A stretch of 64,000 bases of DNA from an uncultured Anaerolineae bacterium (GTDB taxonomy: Bacteria > Chloroflexota > Anaerolineae > Fen-1058). Position numbers and translations under genes: made by a program. Positions within the stretch are counted from its first letter, which is position 1. Every line of letters begins with the position of its first letter. The notes beneath the pieces are model-generated. The model saw only the letters and a list, made by a program, of their open reading frames with translations, ran no database searches and was not told the DNA's origin. Positions 2,045 through 59,866 of the stretch are shown piece by piece. The stretch lies in assembly GCA_964398185.1 (NCBI GenBank), contig CAYNML010000022.1, positions 6,877 through 70,876 on the forward strand, read 5' to 3'.

Positions 2045-5000
2045 TTAACTGTTACCGGATTCTGTAGTCAAGCTGAGCGCCAGCGCGATCGCTTTGTCCA
2101 GCGTTAGCGTCTGCCCATTTTCCCAGGCGGCCGCATAGGCGCTTGCGTCGAATTGCGCGCGCGCCCGATCGTGATAAGGCGCGAGTTGAGCGACTTCATC
2201 CGGCGACAACGGCGAACCGATCGCTTCCCGCCCAGCTTCGGCCGCTCCGAGGATGGTGATCGCCTCGACGTACCGGCCGCGAATGATCGCAACCTCGGCC
2301 AGCCCTTCGACGTTGGAAAGGATGCCAGACTTGTCGCCTTGCTCACGCGCCAGGGCAAGACTCTCTCGAAAAGCTGCGACTGCGCGCGCCGCGTCGTGTT
2401 GTTCCACCCACGCCAGGCCCAGGTTATTGAGTGACGAGGCGATCCCGCGCGCGGCGCCGATCTCGCGCTGCAGTTGCAAACTGCTTTCGTGCAGAGCGAC
2501 CGCTTGCGTATAATCCCCTTGCAGCCGCGCCACAATCCCGAGGCTGTTGAGCGCATTGGCTACGCTGGCCACGTCACCGATTTCGCGGTACAGCGTCAGG
2601 CTCTGCTCGTAAAACGCGTGCGCTTGCGCCAGGTCATTCTGATGGCGGGCCACATTGCCCAGATTTTGCAGCGAGTCGGCAATATCATGTGGATCGCGCA
2701 GCTTCTGCCGAATGGCCAAGCTCTCCTCAAATAATGCCCGGGCGCGCTGATAGTCACCTCGCCGTCGAGCGATAATGCCCAGGCTGTTCAGTCCCCGGGA
2801 AATGCCCCTTTGATCTCCCGACTCGCGCCACAAGGTCAAACTCTCTTCCAGCAACCTGCTGGCCTGTTCCAGATCACCTTGATCCCTGACGATCAGGCTC
2901 AGGCTATTCAGCGCCATCGCCACGCCCGGTTTGTTGCCCAACTCCCGCTGCAACGCGAGCGCCTGCTGCGCCAATGCAGCCGCGCGCGGCAAATCGGCCT
3001 GGGCGCGCGCCAGCCGACACGCGCCATCGATCAGTTCCGCCCGCACCGCCGTCGATAAGCCTGCGCCGTGCGTCAACACGCGCTCCAGCCACTGACGGCC
3101 TTCGGCATAATGGCCGCGCAAATGCCAGAAACGCTGCAGCGCCGCGCCGAGCCGCGCCGCACTTTCGATCTGCTGATGCTCCAGCGCCCACTGCAGCGCC
3201 GTGCGCAAGTTGTCATTCTCAACCTCAAGTTGCCGCAGCCAGCGCGCCTGCTCCTGGCCCAGCAGCTGCGCTTCGGCCTCGGCAGCGAGTTGCACAAACC
3301 ACGCCAGCTGCCGCTCTTGAGCGCGATCGATCTCGCCCGCTTCGATCAGCTTCTCGCGCCCGTATTGGAGCAGGAGTTCATGTAGATCGTAACGTCCATC
3401 GCCTTCGCGCTGCACCAGCGATTTGTCGATCAACGCCGCCAGCAACGCGGGGGTAGCGGCGGCGACATATTGCGCCGCTTCGATCTGAAAACCGCCGCGA
3501 AAAACGGCCAGGCCACGAAACGCCGCCCGTTCGTCGCTTGTGAGCAGCTGCCACGAATGCTCGAACACTGCCCACAGGCTGCGATGCCGCTCGGGGACAT
3601 CACGCAGCCGGGTCGAGAGCGCGCGCAAACTGCCGGCGATTTCGGCGGCGATGGCGTCGCACGACTGGGCGGTTACGGTGGCTGCCGCCAACTCGATCGC
3701 CAGCGGCAGCCCCTCGACCAGGCGGCAGATGCGGGCGATGGCGGCGGCGTTGTCCGCCGCGAGGTGAAACTTGCGCTGCACGCGCTGCGCCCGCTCGACG
3801 AAGAGCTGCACCGCCTGATACCGCGCCATGTCCGGGGCTGACTCAGCGAGAGGGTAATCAAGTCCACCGACTTCAAACACTTGCTCAACCTGCAGCGCCA
3901 ACCGCTCGCGCGAGGTGATCAACAGCGTAAGGCGCGGCGCTTGCTGAATCAAGCGAATGAGCAGCTCGACGCCGGTCAGCAGATGCTCCACATTGTCCAA
4001 CACTAGCAGCAGTTCGCGCGGCCGCAGATAGGCCATGAGCTGTTGTTCAGGATCGGTGTGTTTCTCCCGCGTCACACCCAACGCGGACAAGATCGTGGCT
4101 GGTAGAAGATCAGCGGAAGCAAGCGCGGCCAGCGAGACAAAGGCTGCACCATCCTCAAAGATCGGCGCATTGGCCGTTAAAGCCGCGAGAGCTAAGCGGG
4201 TCTTGCCGATGCCGCCCGGCCCGACGATCGTGATCAACCGCTGGGCGGGATCGGACAACAGATCGGTCAAATCCGCCAGTTCGGTCTCGCGTCCGATCAA
4301 TTTCGTCGTCGCGATCGGCAGCTCGATCGATCGGGTGAGGGCGGTATCCTCGATCGGTGCTCCCGCGCGAATCTGTTCGACCAGGTGCTGCGTGGCGGCG
4401 ATCGGTTCCACGTTGAATTGATCGGCCAGGATGCGGCGGCAGGCTTCATACTGCGCCAGCGCCGCGCCGCGCTGCCCGGCGCGATACAGCAGACGCATCA
4501 GGCGAGCGTGCGCCATTTCGTCCCACGGCTCCAGCTCGATCAACCGCGTCAGCAGTTCGCGCGCGCGCGCTGCAGCGCCCCAGCGTTCATGATACTGCGC
4601 CAGGTGCGTCAGCGCTTCCACCGCGCGTTGATGCAGCGCTTCACGTTTCAACACCAGCCATTCTTCAAAGGGCGCGCTGTCAACCGAGGGCAGCTGAGCC
4701 AGAAAGTCGCCGCGATACAACTGCGCTGCTTCTGCCAGGCGCGCGGCGCAGATTGGACAACGCGCGATGTGCCGATGACGATGTCGCGCGCACTCGTCCA
4801 GCAATGCCGTGAAGCGTGTCACGTCGAGGGTGTAATCGCTGGCGGGGTTCAACTGCACGGTATCGCGCGTGGTGATGAGAAACGGCGCGGCGGGATCACC
4901 GGGGCCGATCGTGTCCCGCAAGCTCGTCAAGACTTGCCGCAGGTTGGTGCGCGCCGCGGCATCGGGCATATCGGGCCACAATAGACCGACGATGGCATCC

Positions 5001-5137
5001 CGTTGCTGCGGACGATCCGCTTCCACGGCAAGGTAGGTCAACAGGGCACGCGCTTTGTTGTAGGCAAAACCGCTCAACACCTGCCCGTCCAGGCTGACTT
5101 GCACGGGACCGAGAAGAGAAATTGACAGATGCGGCAT
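2045..5137 (-). CDS. SARP/AfsR-family regulator: OmpR-type winged helix + BTAD + NB-ARC ATPase + TPR repeats
   Basis: 1030 aa. N-terminus LLGPVQVSLDG...AYLAVE (winged helix/BTAD), Walker A GPGGIGKTRLA, C-terminal array of TPR-like repeats (ALNSLG..., LNNLG...). Confidence 0.85.
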   Translation of the reverse strand: MPHLSISLLGPVQVSLDGQVLSGFAYNKARALLTYLAVEADRPQQRDAIVGLLWPDMPDAAARTNLRQVLTSLRDTIGPGDPAAPFLITTRDTVQLNPASDYTLDVTRFTALLDECARHRHRHIARCPICAARLAEAAQLYRGDFLAQLPSVDSAPFEEWLVLKREALHQRAVEALTHLAQYHERWGAAARARELLTRLIELEPWDEMAHARLMRLLYRAGQRGAALAQYEACRRILADQFNVEPIAATQHLVEQIRAGAPIEDTALTRSIELPIATTKLIGRETELADLTDLLSDPAQRLITIVGPGGIGKTRLALAALTANAPIFEDGAAFVSLAALASADLLPATILSALGVTREKHTDPEQQLMAYLRPRELLLVLDNVEHLLTGVELLIRLIQQAPRLTLLITSRERLALQVEQVFEVGGLDYPLAESAPDMARYQAVQLFVERAQRVQRKFHLAADNAAAIARICRLVEGLPLAIELAAATVTAQSCDAIAAEIAGSLRALSTRLRDVPERHRSLWAVFEHSWQLLTSDERAAFRGLAVFRGGFQIEAAQYVAAATPALLAALIDKSLVQREGDGRYDLHELLLQYGREKLIEAGEIDRAQERQLAWFVQLAAEAEAQLLGQEQARWLRQLEVENDNLRTALQWALEHQQIESAARLGAALQRFWHLRGHYAEGRQWLERVLTHGAGLSTAVRAELIDGACRLARAQADLPRAAALAQQALALQRELGNKPGVAMALNSLSLIVRDQGDLEQASRLLEESLTLWRESGDQRGISRGLNSLGIIARRRGDYQRARALFEESLAIRQKLRDPHDIADSLQNLGNVARHQNDLAQAHAFYEQSLTLYREIGDVASVANALNSLGIVARLQGDYTQAVALHESSLQLQREIGAARGIASSLNNLGLAWVEQHDAARAVAAFRESLALAREQGDKSGILSNVEGLAEVAIIRGRYVEAITILGAAEAGREAIGSPLSPDEVAQLAPYHDRARAQFDASAYAAAWENGQTLTLDKAIALALSLTTESGNS

Positions 5138-5249
5138 AGCTCGCTGCGTGAAAGATGTTACAAGCTGGAATTACTCTAAATTGTATCACTATCACGTTTT
5201 TATCACGTTGGTTTGGTAAAGTAACTTCATCCTTCGGCGGGGGATGTGA

Positions 5250-5465
5250 GTGAATTCAGCTGCGGAGACACGCCACTATCACGCTTATCTGCTGCGCCTC
5301 TGGCAAGCCAGTGAGGGCGAAGCCGTCATGTGGCGCGCGCTGCTGGAAGATCCGCGCACCGGCGAGCGGCGCGGCTTTGCTGATCTCGACAGTCTGTTTG
5401 CTTTTCTGTTGGCCACGTGCCGCGAAGGCCCTTCGGGTGATGAAGCAATTCCTACAACACACTGA
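5250..5465 (+). CDS. small conserved hypothetical protein (71 aa), divergent from the SARP regulator
   Basis: GTG start preceded by GGGGGAT. Coding-like codon usage. Motif YLLRLWQ...WRALLEDPRTGERRGFADLDSLFAFL, which I recall from small actinobacterial/Chloroflexi hypotheticals. Confidence 0.45.
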   Translation: MNSAAETRHYHAYLLRLWQASEGEAVMWRALLEDPRTGERRGFADLDSLFAFLLATCREGPSGDEAIPTTH

Positions 5466-35379: not shown

Positions 35380-35742
35380 ATGTCCTGGACAGCCGAAGAA
35401 ATGCACATCTATCAAAAGACGGCGCTAAAACGCCACCAAGCCGCCAGACAGCAGGTGGCACAGCGCCGCGCACGGGCGTGGGAATTGGCACGGCAAGCGG
35501 CCGAGCGCCTGAAGACCGAGTTCGGCGTCGAGCGGGTGATGGCCTTTGGCTCATTGATACACGCCGATCGATTTACGGAATGGTCAGACGTCGATCTGGC
35601 AGTGTGGGGGCTGACCAATCACAATTGGTTACGGGCCTCAGCGGCGGTGGGCTACGGTGACATTGAAATCAACCTGGTTGATGTGCAGAGCTGCCAACCG
35701 GAGTTACTGGCCAGCATTGAGCGCGAAGGAGTGCCGCTATGA
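35380..35742 (+). CDS. nucleotidyltransferase (MNT-type) antitoxin
   Basis: MAFGSLIHADRFTEWSDVDLAVWG nucleotidyltransferase motif. Confidence 0.75.
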   Translation: MSWTAEEMHIYQKTALKRHQAARQQVAQRRARAWELARQAAERLKTEFGVERVMAFGSLIHADRFTEWSDVDLAVWGLTNHNWLRASAAVGYGDIEINLVDVQSCQPELLASIEREGVPL

Positions 35743-36239
35743 TTCCGCGTTATCGCTTGTTGGCGGCTCGCATTCGAGCCGAGTTGCCAACGTTGGAGCG
35801 CAGCGTCGCGCAAACCGAGGGCGCCTTATTGCGCGCCGAACGGCAACCGGCTGATCAATCTTACTTTGTCGCGGCGGTGGCCTTCGAACTACACAGTTTT
35901 TACGCCGGTCTGGAGCGCCTGTTTGAATTGATTGGCAGCGACGTCGAACAAAGCCGCCCCTCCGGCGCGGCGTGGCATCGTAACCTGCTGACGCAAATGG
36001 CGCTGCCCATCACTGACGTGCGCCCCGCCGTCATACAGACCGAGACACAGACTGCTCTATTGGAATATCTGGAATTTCGACATGTGGTGCGGCACATGTA
36101 CACGTTCAATCTGCGGATCGATCGCGTCACCGAGTTGGGGCGGAGCTTACGTCCGGCCTTTGATCTGGCCCGCCGTGATTTGTTGCGGTTCGCAGAATTC
36201 CTCGATGGGTTAGCGACCGCCGATGAGGCTGGCCTGTAA
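35739..36239 (+). CDS. HepT-like (DUF86/HEPN) RNase toxin
   Basis: 4-nt overlap with the MNT gene. R-X4-H-X-Y motif in FRHVVRHMY. Confidence 0.7.
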   Translation: MIPRYRLLAARIRAELPTLERSVAQTEGALLRAERQPADQSYFVAAVAFELHSFYAGLERLFELIGSDVEQSRPSGAAWHRNLLTQMALPITDVRPAVIQTETQTALLEYLEFRHVVRHMYTFNLRIDRVTELGRSLRPAFDLARRDLLRFAEFLDGLATADEAGL

Positions 36240-36251
36240 AGCACACGGTCA

Positions 36252-36335
36252 CTCGGCGCGGGCGGGAAGTAGATCGCGTTCATTCATCCGTCCAGCGCGA
36301 ACGGGGTGCTGGTGGAGTTGTATCAGAACGCTTGA
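36252..36335. repeat. direct repeat DR-R: decayed copy of the epimerase 3' end (contains an in-frame TAG)
   Basis: Four mismatches relative to 35120-35203, including AAG to TAG. Confidence 0.8.
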
Positions 36336-36508
36336 GAATCAGCGAGTCAGCGAATCAGCGAAGGGGAGAGGTTCCCTTTCGCTGATTTTTGTTTTGCTTT
36401 GCGACTCCAGACCGACATTGCCCATGTGCAGCAATTTCACACTGCCAAGAGGTTGAAAGTATAATAATTGCACTCGCTTTGAGCCTTTCGAAAAGGTGAT
36501 GGTTATTC

Positions 36509-37621
36509 ATGTCTACAGATCATTTCTTCGATGAAACCACTGAGCAGTCAACTGTTAAAACCGCGATAGTGTCGAAGTACTTTTGGGCTTGGGCAAAGGT
36601 AATAATGCCGACAGCCAAGAAAGGTCCTGGAAGAATTGCCTACATTGACTTGTTTGCTGGACCCGGTCGCTACAAGGACGGAACAAAATCCACGCCTGTA
36701 CTCATTTTGGAGAAGGCGATACAAGATGCGGATATGCGCCGAATGCTTGTTACGATGTTTAATGACAAAGACGAAGATAACTCACGTTCATTAGAGAAAG
36801 CAATCCGCGAGTTGCCGGGAATTGAAACACTAAAGCACCGGCCTCAAATCAGCACACAGGAAGTCGGTACTGAGCTCGTCAAAATGTTTGAGCGGATGCG
36901 GTTAGTGCCGACCCTGTTCTTTGTTGATCCTTGGGGATACAAGGGTCTGTCGCTTCGGTTGGTCAACTCGGTGTTAAAGGATTGGGGCTGTGACTGCATC
37001 TTTTTCTTTAACTACAATCGCATCAGCATGGGACTCAATAACGATCTGGTGCGCGAACACATGAATGCATTGTTTGGGCAGAAGCGCGCGGATGAATTGC
37101 GGTTAAGAATGGAGCCGCTTCAGCCACACGAACGTGAGCTGGTCATCGTGGAAGAAATCTGTCAAGCACTGAAAGAAATGGGCGGTGCATATGTCTTGCC
37201 GTTTCGCTTCAGGAACTATCTCGGCAGTAGAACAAGTCATCACTTGATATTTGTCAGCAAGCATCCCAAGGGCTACGAAATCATGAAAGAGATTATGGCC
37301 CAACTAAGTTCTTCTAGCGAGCAAGGAGTGCCCTCTTTTGAATATAGCCCTGCGGATAAGCGACAGCCGTTGTTGTTTGAATTGTCCCGCCCGTTGGACG
37401 ATTTGGAGGAAATGCTCGTCTCAGATTTCGCAGGTAAAACGTTGACGATGCAGCAGATCTACGAAAGTCATAACGTCGGTAGACCGTATATCAAACGGAA
37501 TTATAAAGATGTATTGATGAAGTTGGAGGCAAGTGGTACGATTAAAGTAGAACCGCATCGTAAAGGTACTTTTGGCGACAATGTCGTTGTCACATTTCCA
37601 CAAAAACGCGGGGGCAAGTAG
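36509..37621 (+). CDS. tcmP: TcmP-like (three-Cys-motif partner protein) family protein
   Basis: 370 aa. TATAAT and AAAAGGTGA upstream. Motifs DLFAGPGRY and [10 protein letters not shown]. Immediately followed by a three-Cys Gp37/Gp68-family gene, the defining context I recall for the TcmP family. Confidence 0.65.
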
Positions 37622-37623
37622 AA

Positions 37624-38355
37624 GTGGCCACCAAATCCAGCATCGAATGGACTGAATCCACCTGGAATCCATTAACGGGCTGCACCAAGATCAGCCCGGG
37701 CTGCAAGCATTGTTATGCTGAACGCATGGCAAAACGTCTACGCGCCATGGGCCAGCCCAACTACGCCAACGGCTTCAAGTTGACGCTGCATCCGCAAGCG
37801 CTGGAAATTCCGCTGGGCTGGAAGAAGCCGCAGATGATCTTCGTCAACTCCATGAGCGATCTCTTCCACAAAGATGTGCCGGTGGACTTCATTCAGCAAG
37901 TCTTTGATGTGATGCGCCGCGCCGACTGGCACCGGTTTCAAGTTCTCACCAAACGCGCTGAACGCTTGCTTGAAATCGACCCGCAAATTGAGTGGCCGTC
38001 CAACGTGTGGATGGGGGTCAGCGTCGAGAATCAGGACTACAAGTATCGCATCGAGTTGCTGCGGCAGACTCACGCCAAGATCAAGTTCCTCTCGCTGGAA
38101 CCGCTGTTGGGGCCACTGCCTCGCTTGAACTTGAAGGGCATCAACTGGGTCATCGTCGGGGGTGAATCGGGGCCGGGCGCACGGCCTTTGCGGGAAGAAT
38201 GGGTAATCGACATTCGCGATCAATGCAAAGCAAGGCACGTGCCGTTCTTCTTCAAGCAATGGGGCGGCGTGCAAAAGAAACGGGCCGGGCGATTGCTGCA
38301 AGGGGAAATCTACAGCCAGATGCCCGAACAAGATTGGATCGGCGCAACAGCTTGA
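37624..38355 (+). CDS. three-Cys-motif protein, phage Gp37/Gp68 (DUF5131) family
   Basis: 243 aa. N-terminus [20 protein letters not shown] (C-X6-C-X2-C). C-terminus [13 protein letters not shown]...FFFKQWGG. Confidence 0.7.
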
Positions 38356-38541
38356 ACTGCTGATTATCTTTTCTGTTTCGGATCAATAAGCGAGCGAATC
38401 GTGCTGACGATTCGCTCGCTCGTTGATTCATTGATTCGCTGATTTTGACTTCCCCTGTGGTACAATCGCTCCACTCAACTTGCCGCGAATCCTCCCGGAG
38501 GTTCTAAACCTCCGGGAGGCTCCAGGTCTTCAGGTGATTCA

Positions 38542-41403
38542 ATGGATTTGCTGCACGGACTCAATCCCCAGCAGGCGCGGGCAGTGGAAGCGCCCGACGG
38601 GCCGGTGCTGGTTCTCGCCGGACCCGGCTCGGGCAAGACACGCGTGCTCACACATCGCGTGGCGTATCTGGTCGAGGTGCGCAAGGTCTGGCCGCGCCAG
38701 ATCCTGGCGGTGACGTTTACGAACAAGGCCGCGCGCGAGATGCGCGAACGGCTCGCTAAGATCCTCGGCCCAACCCGATCGGGTGAGCTGACCCTCGGCA
38801 CGTTCCACGCCATCTGCGCGCGCTGGCTGCGCCGCGATGCGCCCGAGATTGGCCTGAGCCGCGACTTTGTGATCTTCGACGAGGACGATCAGCAGCAGGT
38901 GGTCAAGCGCGTGCTGGCCGAGTTGAACATCGACGACAAGAAGTACAAGCCCTCGGCGGTGCTCAACGCGATCTCGAATGCGAAAAACGAACTGATCACG
39001 CCCGACATCTATCAGCCTCCGACGTACTGGCACGAGATGATCCGCCGCATCTATCCGCGCTATCAGGAACTGCTGCGCCAGAGCAACGGCCTGGACTTCG
39101 ACGATCTGCTGCTGGAAGTGGTGCGCCTGTTCGATGCGCGCCCTGACATTCTATCGCGCTATCAGGATCGCTACCAGCACATCCTCGTCGACGAATTTCA
39201 AGATACCAACACGGTGCAGTATGCGTTGATCAGTCGCCTAGCGGCGAAGTCGCATAACATCTTCTGCGTGGGGGATGAAGATCAATGTTTGCCAGCGGGT
39301 ACGCTGGTGCAAACGCCCGATGGCGTAAAGCCGATTGAGCGTATTCGAGTAGGTGAGCAGGTCATTGCCGCCAGCGGCGCAGGTGATGTGCAGGCCGCAT
39401 TGGTCACCCATGTGGATAGCCGAGACTACGCTGGATACGCTGTTCGGCTGAAGACGCGCGACGGTTATGCAGTTTGCGCTACGCCCAATCATGTCATGTT
39501 TGCGCGAACCGCGACAGCCGCAAATGAATTGCGGCCTGCTAGGGAAAACAGGCTGAAGCCTGTTGCGGCGGCGGCGTCTGCGTCTGAAATCCGTTTTAAC
39601 GGATTTGATCCTATCAGACGCCGAATTCATTCGGCGGGCTTGCGCTCCTCCATGCTGCTGGACGAGAACGCAGCGAATGGCCAAGCGCTTGAAGTTGCGT
39701 GCGGCCCCTATTTGTGCGATTTTACCGATCAAATTCCAGCCCGGCGTTTCGAGCTGCTCCCCTTAAGCCATTTGCGCACCTCAATGCGCGTGGCTGTTTT
39801 TTACGAAGGGCAGATCGTGGAAGACGAAGTTGCCGAAGTTCAGTGGGAGCACTACCGCGGCAAGGTCTATGACCTTGAAGTAGCCGATGTGCATAACTAC
39901 CTGGCTGGAGGCGTCGTCGTTCATAACTCAATTTACAAGTGGCGCGGCGCGGACTTCCGCAACATCCAGCGTTTCCGCGAGCACAACCCCGGCCTGACGC
40001 AGATCGTCCTCGAAGAGAATTACCGCTCGACGCAGACCATCCTCGATGCGGCGCGCGGCGTGATCGACAAGAACACCCAACGGACGCGCAAGAACCTCTT
40101 CACGCAGCGCTCGGGTGGCACGGCGATCAGCGTCTACGAAGCTTACAATCAGGACGACGAAGCGCAGTACGTCGTCGATACGATTCAGCAGTTGATCAAA
40201 AAGCAGCAGTACAAGCTCTCCGATTTTGCCGTGTTCTATCGCACCAACGCCCAGTCCCGCGCGATTGAAGATACGTTCGTGCGGATGGGCGTGCCGTATC
40301 GGCTGGTGGGCGGCGTGCGCTTCTATTCGCGCCGAGAAATCAAGGACGTGCTGGCGTATCTGCGGCTGGTGCACAATCCGCACGACGCGGTGAGTCTGGC
40401 GCGCGTGATCAACGTGCCCGCGCGCGGCATCGGCGTCAAGACGCTGGAGGTGCTCGACGAAGCGTCACGCCGCAGCGGCCACTCGCCGTATCAACTCATT
40501 CACGACGCACCCAATCTCGATCAGGCCGTGCCGGGTCTCACAACGAAAGCCAGGCAGGCGCTGCTCGGCTTTGCGCAGTTGATCGATCGCTGGATCGATT
40601 CGCCGCAGCGGGCGCGCAGCGTGGCCGAGTTGATGGATCTCGTCCTGCGCGATTCCGGCTACTTCAAGCACGTCAACGACGGCACCGACGAAGGCCGCGA
40701 TCGCTGGGACAACATCAAGGAACTGCGCAACGTCGCCGCCGATTACACACAGGCGCTGGGCGACGATCCGCTGGCGCACTTCCTCGAAGATGTGGCGTTG
40801 GTGGCCGATGTCGATTCGCTGAAGGATCAGGTCGATGCGCCGGTGCTGATGACGCTGCACGCCGCAAAAGGGCTGGAATTCCCGATCGTTTTCATCACCG
40901 GCATGGAAGAAGGGCTGCTGCCGCACTCGCGTTCGCTGGAAGATCCCGAAGAGATGGCCGAGGAGCGCCGCCTGTGTTACGTGGGCATCACGCGCGCCAA
41001 AGATCGCGTCTTCCTGTCGTATGCCTTCCGCCGCACCATGTGGGGCAGCAGCGATGTCAGCACGCCGTCGCGTTTCTTGAGCGACATTCCCAAAGCGCTG
41101 GTCAGCGGATCGGCTTCGTTTGCCGATGTGCGACCGCGCGAGGCCGCCGCGATTCGTGCTTCGACGTGGGAGACGCCGTCCGGCGCGGCCGCCGGGGCCA
41201 AGCCCGCCCGATCGGTTGCCGCACCCTCGCGCGCTTTGCAGTTCCGCGCGGGGCAGCGCGTGAAACACGCCCAGTTCGGCGAAGGCATCGTGATCGAAAG
41301 CAAGCTCGATCGCAACGACGAAGAAGTGACGGTGGCCTTCAAGAAGGCCGGCATCAAGCGTCTGCTGGCGAGCTTTGCGAACTTGCAGAAATTACCTGGC
41401 TAA
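38542..41403 (+). CDS. pcrA: ATP-dependent DNA helicase PcrA/UvrD (SF1), interrupted by an in-frame intein (exteins 38542-39285 and 39928-41403)
   Basis: Motif I GPGSGKT, II HILVDEFQDTN, III VGDEDQ / SIYKWRGAD split by a 214-aa insert. The C-terminal Tudor-like domain is present. Confidence 0.9.
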   Translation: MDLLHGLNPQQARAVEAPDGPVLVLAGPGSGKTRVLTHRVAYLVEVRKVWPRQILAVTFTNKAAREMRERLAKILGPTRSGELTLGTFHAICARWLRRDAPEIGLSRDFVIFDEDDQQQVVKRVLAELNIDDKKYKPSAVLNAISNAKNELITPDIYQPPTYWHEMIRRIYPRYQELLRQSNGLDFDDLLLEVVRLFDARPDILSRYQDRYQHILVDEFQDTNTVQYALISRLAAKSHNIFCVGDEDQCLPAGTLVQTPDGVKPIERIRVGEQVIAASGAGDVQAALVTHVDSRDYAGYAVRLKTRDGYAVCATPNHVMFARTATAANELRPARENRLKPVAAAASASEIRFNGFDPIRRRIHSAGLRSSMLLDENAANGQALEVACGPYLCDFTDQIPARRFELLPLSHLRTSMRVAVFYEGQIVEDEVAEVQWEHYRGKVYDLEVADVHNYLAGGVVVHNSIYKWRGADFRNIQRFREHNPGLTQIVLEENYRSTQTILDAARGVIDKNTQRTRKNLFTQRSGGTAISVYEAYNQDDEAQYVVDTIQQLIKKQQYKLSDFAVFYRTNAQSRAIEDTFVRMGVPYRLVGGVRFYSRREIKDVLAYLRLVHNPHDAVSLARVINVPARGIGVKTLEVLDEASRRSGHSPYQLIHDAPNLDQAVPGLTTKARQALLGFAQLIDRWIDSPQRARSVAELMDLVLRDSGYFKHVNDGTDEGRDRWDNIKELRNVAADYTQALGDDPLAHFLEDVALVADVDSLKDQVDAPVLMTLHAAKGLEFPIVFITGMEEGLLPHSRSLEDPEEMAEERRLCYVGITRAKDRVFLSYAFRRTMWGSSDVSTPSRFLSDIPKALVSGSASFADVRPREAAAIRASTWETPSGAAAGAKPARSVAAPSRALQFRAGQRVKHAQFGEGIVIESKLDRNDEEVTVAFKKAGIKRLLASFANLQKLPG
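39286..39927 (+). mobile_element. mini-intein (214 aa) inserted in helicase motif III of PcrA
   Basis: Begins CLPAGTLVQTPDG (block A). Block B CATPNHVMF (TxxH). Ends VYDLEVADVHNYLAGGVVVHN followed by extein Ser. No LAGLIDADG/HNH endonuclease blocks seen. Confidence 0.8.
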
Positions 41404-42783: not shown

Positions 42784-42823
42784 AACGCAACGACTCGCTG
42801 ACAGACAGCGAGTCGTTTGGCAG

Positions 42824-42896
42824 TGGGCCCAGCTGGGGTCGAACCGGCAACCAACGCTTTATGAGAGCGCTGCTCTAACCTTTGAGCTATGGGCCC
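42824..42896 (-). tRNA. tRNA-Met (anticodon CAT; elongator type, lysidine-Ile2 not excluded)
   Basis: Minus-strand GGGCCCATAGCTCAAAGGTTAGAGCAGCGCTCTCATAAAGCGTTGGTTGCCGGTTCGACCCCAGCTGGGCCCA. 7-bp acceptor stem with G1-C72. CCA not encoded. Confidence 0.85.
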
Positions 42897-59811: not shown

Positions 59812-59866
59812 AATGAGTAACGAGTAACGAGTAATGGTTTTACTCGTTACTCGTTACTCGTTTATG
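59812..59866. repeat. hairpin repeat family C copy (GTAACGAGTAACGAGTAATGG / TTACTCGTTACTCGTTAC)
   Basis: Read directly. Same word units as 27781-27838. Confidence 0.65.

Follow-up and report, generated by a model that had tools for sequence, protein, structure and literature searches.

Inteins in UvrD-type helicases have been described previously. Novikova et al. (2016; PMC4760082) counted 16 UvrD inteins in five phyla, and Chloroflexi are absent from the UvrD phyla in their table. Escherichia phage PaulScherrer (MZ501100.1, bas60_0082) encodes a protein annotated as an 'intein-containing UvrD / Rep family helicase precursor', with a mat_peptide labeled 'intein', and phage vB_EcoM_ZYD carries the similar label 'intein-containing UvrD'. 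Endonuclease-free inteins with the Hint fold and class-1 residues, both natural and engineered, are represented by the Mtu RecA splicing domain (3ifj, 2in0) and by the Ssp and Npu DnaB mini-inteins. Here, we analyzed 64,000 nucleotides (nt) of contig CAYNML010000022.1 (positions 6,877 to 70,876, forward strand) from an uncultured Anaerolineae bacterium of the phylum Chloroflexota (GCA_964398185.1). This whole stretch is henceforth referred to as the window. It encodes a PcrA/UvrD helicase whose motif III is split in frame by a 214-amino-acid (aa) insert. We consider it very likely that the insert is a canonical class-1 mini-intein and that its ancestor was a full-size, ~360-aa intein directed at the motif III Gln/Ser bond.

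We compared the insert with the described systems. The PaulScherrer intein occupies the same site (VVGDEFQ/C...SHN/CIYQFRGS, with slashes at the intein borders). It matches, end to end and with 223.6 bits, a family Hidden Markov Model (HMM) built from 69 full-size inteins of this site (362 positions), which places it in the same splicing-domain family. It differs in being full-size (346 aa) with its central domain kept, whereas the window intein lacks 186 aa of that domain, and in having Cys rather than Ser as the +1 residue. The same element turned up in 69 records when phage genomes were searched with tblastn. As far as the table of Novikova et al. (PMC4760082) goes, the likeness to their UvrD inteins is at the level of the host protein family and the general class of element only. 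The Mtu RecA and DnaB mini-inteins resemble the window intein in fold, the model of the latter having template modeling (TM) scores of 0.81 to 3ifj and 0.83 to 4o1r. However, they share only 13-20% identity with it, reside in other host proteins and have a short loop where the window intein has a 73-residue non-Hint insertion.

The insert splits motif III of PcrA

The host gene is an unbroken open reading frame (ORF) for a 953-aa PcrA/UvrD precursor, with the following parts.

38542..41403, + strand: PcrA/UvrD precursor ORF, matching UvrD-helicase (PF00580, 283.6 bits), UvrD_C (PF13361, 257.8 bits) and PcrA_UvrD_tudor (PF21196, 48.5 bits)
38542..39285, + strand: N-extein, aa 1-248, ending at motif III (...VGDEDQ); GC content at third codon positions (GC3) 0.80 overall
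39286..39927, + strand: insert, very likely a class-1 mini-intein of 214 aa by HMMs, family alignment and predicted fold; GC3 0.575
39928..41403, + strand: C-extein, opening with the motif III residues SIYKWRGA, of which Ser is the +1 residue; 96% identical to relatives at the aa level, ratio of nonsynonymous to synonymous substitution rates (dN/dS) 0.03-0.07

We located the insert by script at residues 249-462 (CLPAGTLV...GGVVVHN). It is bordered by ...SHNIFCVGDEDQ on the N side and SIYKWRGADFRN... on the C side, that is, by FCVGDEDQ and SIYKWRGADF. An earlier reading of this DNA from its letters alone (the original prediction) had placed a 214-aa mini-intein at 39286-39927 between these flanks, and its coordinates and quoted sequence are exact. 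It had also expected a PcrA of ~739 aa without the insert. Excision leaves 739 aa and restores a gap-free match to UvrD/PcrA. The two UvrD helicase domains can be recognized, as can motif III and a tudor domain at the C-terminus, and on these features the host protein is predicted to be a PcrA/UvrD helicase of superfamily 1A (SF1A). The pcrA model TIGR01073 scored 850.5 bits on the precursor, under its equivalog cut-off of 911.2, and its match is split in two at the insert.

Across the spliced junction, a peptide of 84 residues aligned without gaps to the structures of E. coli UvrD (217-300, VGDDDQSIYGWRGA) and of PcrA (221-303). The intein thus parts Gln from Ser within SF1 motif III, exactly as had been proposed. 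The intein-free alleles agree, since those checked (95-97% identity) read GDEDQSIYKWRGA at the site. Judged from these alignments, the insert is an in-frame insertion whose removal would restore a conserved host motif. In PcrA numbering the split Gln is Q254, one of the residues by which ATP hydrolysis is coupled to DNA binding. There is no second UvrD-like gene within the 64-kb window, and it is plausible that the host depends on intein splicing for PcrA.

Identity as a class-1 intein

The Hint-domain search that the original prediction had put forward as a check passed the curated cut-offs. On the insert, Pfam Intein_splicing (PF14890) reached 51.2 bits, its cut-off being 35.8, and the NCBIfam models TIGR01443 (intein_Cterm) and TIGR01445 (intein_Nterm) scored 27.5 and 26.7 against cut-offs of 15.6 and 24.5, respectively. 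Hint, PT-HINT and Hint_2 gave weaker supporting matches. We then considered a family alignment of 27 sequences, comprising the window intein and 26 inteins of the same site. All of its invariant columns (C1, G50, T66, H69, P159, D196, H213 and N214) are kept by the window intein. The class-1 set is present, with Cys1, block B T66-P-N-H69, block F D196, H213-N214 and a +1 Ser (S463). The Cys1, the TxxH block B and the HN/S junction picked out in the original prediction correspond to invariant columns of the family.

A structure model of the insert was built with AlphaFold2 from a shallow alignment of 20 rows. The predicted local distance difference test (pLDDT) score is >90 over aa 1-78 and 150-214 and <50 over aa 79-138, with values of 92-98 in the N half and 84-98 in the C half. 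In a Foldseek search against the Protein Data Bank (PDB), the top 50 matches were all inteins or Hint domains, the best being the Mtu RecA intein 3ifj (E 1.5e-7, target TM 0.81). The insert is thereby predicted to have the Hint fold.

The frame is continuous, which excludes an intron. A second sample (L021) contains a 642-nt intein identical to this one, and other assemblies have related alleles at the same site, which excludes a sequencing chimera or assembly artefact. Overall, the HMM matches, the aligned family, the modeled fold and the comparison with intein-free alleles all support the reading as a mini-intein.

A common intein family at the motif III site

We searched 1.84 billion representative sequences exhaustively with HMMER, using as the query the intein with 25 flanking residues on each side. 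At E ≤ 1e-10, 693 clusters matched. The original prediction had asked for a comparison of insertion sites with other PcrA/UvrD inteins: 106 of the 150 best clusters fit the pattern GDxDQ / C...[H]N / [S/C]IYxWRGA, i.e., the same site. With this shared site and similarity in both halves, the window intein can be assigned by sequence to the UvrD/PcrA motif III allele family. It is an ordinary member of a common, already annotated family and is not new. The rarity implied by the original prediction was mistaken, given that hundreds of UvrD/PcrA clusters have an intein at this site and that the phage case is annotated. Intein lengths are strongly modal at 350-370 aa (~360), with a tail of mini-inteins of 167-261 aa. 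The breakpoints of the mini-inteins differ, which argues that they decayed independently.

The family is visible only by the exhaustive search of representatives; when the bare intein was used in a word-seeded search, a single fragment (P0001) was returned. Five loci from a contig scan with the intein query were rejected as unrelated inteins or Hint domains that match only words of the PDGVKPIE type. Of these, L003 and L004 (~4001-5140; metagenome-assembled genomes, MAGs, of Rokubacteria) have a LAGLIDADG-type intein in an IspG-like gene, L005 and L006 (~4001-5390; MAGs of Chloroflexia/Thermoflexales) have one in a SufB-like gene, and L007 encodes a Hint-domain toxin-like protein of Isoptericola.

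Anatomy of the mini-intein and its lost central domain

The family HMM matched the window intein at positions 1-78 (aa 1-78, 84.2 bits) and 300-362 (aa 152-214, 84.6 bits) only, and the other five frames gave no match to it. The insert divides as follows.

39286..39519, + strand: N-terminal splicing half, aa 1-78, with block A Cys1 and block B T66-x-x-H69; family HMM 84.2 bits, dN/dS 0.11-0.17 against sister alleles
39526..39645, + strand: filler, aa 81-120; no similarity to the central domain in any frame, low confidence in the structure model
39646..39738, + strand: what is left of the lost domain, from its C-terminal end, aa 121-151, by BLASTP to P0153 and family alignment
39739..39927, + strand: C-terminal splicing half, aa 152-214, with D196 and H213-N214; family HMM 84.6 bits, TIGR01443 27.5 bits

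In bifunctional inteins, blocks B and F enclose an endonuclease domain; here, HMM positions 79-299 are missing. Even at E values of up to 1, the insert had no LAGLIDADG or HNH match, in keeping with the original prediction. GIY-YIG models did not match the window intein, and its other frames and antisense ORF were likewise without an endonuclease match. The closest full-size relative, P0153 (locus L008), aligned by BLASTP without gaps over aa 1-80 of the window intein (59% identity), and its residues 267-360 aligned without gaps to aa 121-214 (66% identity). The window intein has 40 unrelated residues in place of 186 from the central domain, and ~30 aa of the domain end survive. The linker between the splicing halves had been suggested to be a degenerate endonuclease remnant. 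This holds for aa 121-151, which are homologous to the domain end, but not for aa 81-120, which are unrelated to the domain in all six frames and contain a cluster of palindromes. Neither the filler peptide nor a 164-aa antisense ORF (39238-39732) has a match in Pfam.

The lost domain is neither LAGLIDADG nor HNH. It is an unannotated domain conserved across the motif III intein family. In the full-size relatives it spans ~220 aa, with invariant VYLM..G.R.G, R..E..D..W, G.P..F and PH motifs, and as such it is absent from the window. It is carried by P0002-P0151, P0158, L001, L008 and L017, and also by inteins of phage UvrD-type helicases. There was no significant match to the domain in Pfam, NCBIfam, PHROGs or a PDB sequence profile, and a model of P0158 (pLDDT 82) had no PDB match by Foldseek. 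When this model was compared with viral models by Foldseek, the first three matches were apparently intein-containing phage proteins (E 1e-16 to 1e-11), namely a helicase, an adenine methyltransferase (where the domain is seen by Foldseek alone) and one unnamed protein. The next several were GIY-YIG endonucleases (E 9e-4 to 0.07). With the GIY-YIG family PF01541, 2 of 21 members (best E 0.008) and also L001 (E 0.14) gave matches that stayed below threshold, and no other Pfam family was matched by more than one member. The order of secondary-structure elements in the P0158 model fits the beta-beta-alpha-beta-alpha core of GIY-YIG. An hhalign comparison of the central domain with T4 SegA, SegF and I-TevII was not significant (1.3% probability). 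The central domain appears weakly GIY-YIG-like, both by sequence and by modeled fold. GIY-YIG is not listed as an in-frame intein domain in the intein literature consulted (PMC2677866; bioRxiv 10.1101/2025.01.02.630785), and the 2025 survey of intein endonucleases lists LAGLIDADG, HNH, VSR-like and EndoVII-like domains only (bioRxiv 10.1101/2025.01.02.630785).

Alleles, selection and horizontal exchange

The nearest relatives of the spliced extein belong to the Thermoflexales/Anaerolineae (Chloroflexota), and most are intein-free. The intein-free proteins P0171 and P0173-P0186 are 93-97% identical to it and mostly 735 aa long. Other relatives carry inteins of different sizes, and empty, mini and full-size alleles all occur among close relatives whose exteins share 94-97% identity.

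P0172 (L021, other sample): identical mini-intein, 214 aa, 642 of 642 nt identical
P0187, P0190, P0271 and P0239: related mini-inteins of 199, 203, 234 and 248 aa, respectively
P0202, P0204, P0229, P0230 and P0244: full-size inteins, 365 aa

The sister mini alleles (the identical P0172, P0187, P0190 from GCA_905338865.1, and P0271) share both the site and the deletion boundaries of the window intein. Their N half ends at aa 74-78 and their C half begins at HMM position 291-300. Between the conserved halves lie 62-97 aa with palindrome-rich fillers that are nearly unalignable.

The intein stands out by composition. Both exteins have a GC3 of 0.80 and neighboring housekeeping genes one of 0.80-0.83, but that of the intein is 0.575, which suggests a compositional alien of foreign origin. 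Among the three closest mini alleles, dN/dS is 0.06-0.17 in the splicing halves and 0.04-0.07 in the exteins, and by these ratios the splicing halves are under purifying selection. In synonymous divergence (dS), the intein (0.5 to >1.7) mostly exceeds its flanking exteins (0.37-0.61). The intein pattern is mosaic as well: the window allele and L020 have a dS of 0.51 in the N half and a saturated one in the C half. Extein and intein relationships are incongruent. The window allele and L020 are 96% identical in the exteins and 68% in the intein C halves, and the corresponding values for L023 are 63% and 71%.

The last ~180 nt of the N-extein (39100-39285) have a GC3 of 0.65-0.72 vs ~0.85 upstream, and their identity to the intein-free L022 is 0.83-0.88 vs 0.93-0.97 elsewhere. 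Identity recovers at once in the C-extein. This stretch upstream of the site is possibly a one-sided co-conversion tract left by homing. The coexistence of empty, mini and full-size alleles, the alien GC3, the dS mosaic and the incongruence therefore point to a homing cycle caught at its empty, full and decayed stages. As the comparison of alleles shows, the element reached the Thermoflexales/Anaerolineae lineage via homing and horizontal exchange and lost 186 aa afterwards.

Two of the full-size loci are worth a separate remark. The relative in L008 (694-1773) is seemingly decaying, with internal deletions in conserved motifs of the central domain (VWILRVWLCDEAYWE..., NSIPTIVF). The intein in L001 (1066-2170) has a 1-nt frameshift just past block B, for which a sequencing error is possible in this assembly of 4x coverage.

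Predicted splicing and persistence

Splicing would follow the class-1 pathway. The precursor would be translated whole, with the helicase inactive while 214 residues lie inside motif III. The Hint domain would turn the bond between Q248 and C249 into a Cys1 thioester, and attack of S463 (Ser+1) on this thioester would give a branched intermediate. Cyclization of Asn214 would then free the intein, and an O-to-N shift would leave a normal Gln-Ser bond, restoring ...VGDEDQSIYKWRGA... in the mature helicase. Having lost its central, presumed endonuclease domain (186 aa), the mini-intein would now be immobile by itself. It would persist because only a precise deletion could take it out without killing pcrA.

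From its sequence and modeled structure, the mini-intein is probably active in splicing, and the dN/dS of 0.06-0.17 in the splicing halves argues that the mini-inteins still need to splice. We note that several points weigh against this interpretation. The claim of splicing rests wholly on sequence and models, and the structure model comes from an alignment of just 20 rows. Moreover, a 73-residue insertion lies between the two halves (aa 79-151, filler included), with pLDDT <50 over most of its length, and it could slow or condition splicing.

The loss of the endonuclease domain and the unstructured linker in the model might also be taken to indicate that the intein is dead. The pcrA allele would then be a pseudogene or encode a non-functional helicase, and a paralogue elsewhere would do its work. 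However, all the catalytic residues are intact and the frame of 953 codons is open. The low dN/dS of both the splicing halves (0.06-0.17) and the exteins (0.03-0.07) and the recurrence of the identical allele in two samples also speak against a dead intein, which we regard as very improbable.

The same purifying selection on the splicing halves could instead reflect a regulatory role, in which the intein is not a purely selfish remnant. It would act as a conditional switch that responds to redox state, metals or DNA damage and tunes PcrA post-translationally. Cys1 is redox-sensitive in principle, and the position inside a catalytic motif is one that, as Novikova et al. (PMC4760082) argue, typifies possibly regulatory inteins. 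However, purifying selection is equally accounted for by the need to splice, most close relatives are intein-free, and no sensor feature was found, e.g., a second conserved Cys pair. A switch therefore seems quite unlikely to us, and a mini-intein that probably still splices remains our preferred interpretation.

A palindrome-rich filler at the deletion scar

The filler that took the place of the central domain contains a cluster of perfect hairpins, given here with stems in base pairs (bp).

39517..39636, no strand assigned: four perfect palindromic hairpins; RNA fold z-score -3.65
39517-39535: hairpin 1, 7-bp stem and 5-nt loop, GCCGCAA-ATGAA-TTGCGGC
39547-39564: hairpin 2, 8-bp stem and 2-nt loop, AACAGGCT-GA-AGCCTGTT
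39587-39606: hairpin 3, 9-bp stem and 2-nt loop, AAATCCGTT-TT-AACGGATTT
39619-39636: hairpin 4, 8-bp stem and 2-nt loop, CGCCGAAT-TC-ATTCGGCG

The 64 kb contain 19 hairpins with stems of ≥8 bp, and 3 of these fall within 90 nt of filler (Poisson P ~4e-6 per 100 nt). We assessed the excess in the window and in three sister fillers by comparison with 2,000 dinucleotide shuffles.

Window filler: 3 hairpins observed, 0.13 expected, P 0.0005
L020 filler: 2 hairpins observed, 0.09 expected, P 0.0025
L019 filler: 4 hairpins observed, 0.08 expected, reached in 0 of 2,000 shuffles (<0.0005)
L023 filler: 3 hairpins observed, 0.10 expected, reached in 0 of 2,000 shuffles (<0.0005)

As a control, the exteins and the full-size central domains have 0-0.15 hairpins per 100 nt. 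No hairpins were found in three independent mini-intein alleles of other lineages (L026, L027 and L024, the last with a duplicate locus, L025). The sister fillers are 43-51% identical to that of the window at the DNA level, with many gaps, and the encoded peptides are unrelated. Judged by this divergence, the filler is free of protein-level constraint.

We considered two origins for the hairpins. The first, to which we give close to an even chance, is that the filler is a mutational footprint in a linker without protein-level constraint. It would have been left either by fold-back or template-switch synthesis during the repair that deleted the domain, or by later quasi-palindrome correction. 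The linker peptides vary between alleles and their DNA differs by many indels, as expected for such a footprint. The window and L019 share the seed GAAATCCG, which pairs with a downstream arm in one of them and with an upstream arm in the other, the pattern expected of templated palindrome formation. The 2-nt loops also fit DNA palindromes better than RNA hairpins. However, linkers of similar length in the independent mini-inteins hold no hairpins, so lack of constraint alone is insufficient. In addition, the trait is kept in four alleles, one with an extein only 63% identical, and many hairpin apexes are alike, reading AT-GA-AT or its complement AT-TC-AT.

The second origin is a heritable in-frame palindrome array in at least four Anaerolineae alleles (hosts down to 63% identical) rather than mere decay. 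The array would have replaced the endonuclease domain either as a small, undescribed palindromic element within the intein or as a selected DNA or RNA structure affecting expression, splicing or recombination. The hairpin excess is significant in all four related alleles and specific to this clade. The UGAA apex of hairpin 1 is kept on different stems in the window allele, L020 and L019, and L019 and L023 have the stem ACCGGCGA/TCGCCGGT in common despite their distant hosts. The hairpins also occur in both orientations, as in bacterial interspersed mosaic elements (BIMEs).

Palindromic modules are known from other bacteria. Rickettsia palindromic elements are short palindromic DNA modules, multi-copy and conserved in sequence, that are tolerated in frame in coding regions. 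Repetitive extragenic palindromic (REP) sequences and BIMEs are multi-copy, conserved-sequence clusters of hairpins in alternating orientation. The window filler likewise consists of short palindromes, but its stems differ between alleles and it has no second copy in the 64 kb, where we searched for the filler and its hairpins with up to 3 mismatches and with blastn-short. No second copy or cluster was found in the fetched loci either. Within the window and these loci, the filler thus does not appear to have the dispersed related copies of a multi-copy element. A metagenome scan with the 20-mer AAATCCGTTTTAACGGATTT from one hairpin returned only seven unrelated, AT-rich, terminator-like hairpins, and Rfam gave nothing relevant to the filler at gathering or E-value thresholds. 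Four distinct alleles are also too few for covariation to be assessed. We consider a heritable array of either kind rather unlikely, and a mutational footprint remains the origin that we favor.

Surroundings of pcrA in the window

Directly upstream of pcrA lies a block of lower GC3 (35380-38355), which is probably a small acquired island. It contains an MNT-type nucleotidyltransferase and HepT-like toxin-antitoxin pair (GC3 0.67), a GMT-wHTH protein (0.53) and a DUF5131 protein (0.72). The gene upstream of pcrA in relatives encodes a DUF5131 protein in L020, a PIN-domain protein in L022 and an esterase in L019. Two long perfect hairpins, with stems of 14 bp (38389-38420) and 13 bp (38491-38519), occupy the 186-nt gap between the DUF5131 gene and the pcrA start and may act as a terminator and/or regulatory structure. 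The longest palindrome of the window is a perfect hairpin with a 20-bp stem of GAGTAAC heptamer repeats at 59815-59859 (GAGTAACGAGTAACGAGTAA / TTACTCGTTACTCGTTACTC). The sole Rfam match at the gathering threshold in the window is a tRNA gene (42824-42896, - strand), and a hairpin with a 12-bp stem (42789-42817) adjoins it.

Implications

The alleles described here form a series suited to the study of the homing cycle and of intein decay. They comprise empty, full-size and several mini alleles, and extein identity mostly lies at 84-98%, except for two full-size alleles (72%). Hundreds of inteins, those of cultured E. coli phages among them, share the unmatched central domain, which is a lead that deserves a proper test. 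The palindromic filler is a reproducible, unexplained mark at the scar of an endonuclease deletion, and it may carry a record of the repair or mutational events from which mini-inteins arise.

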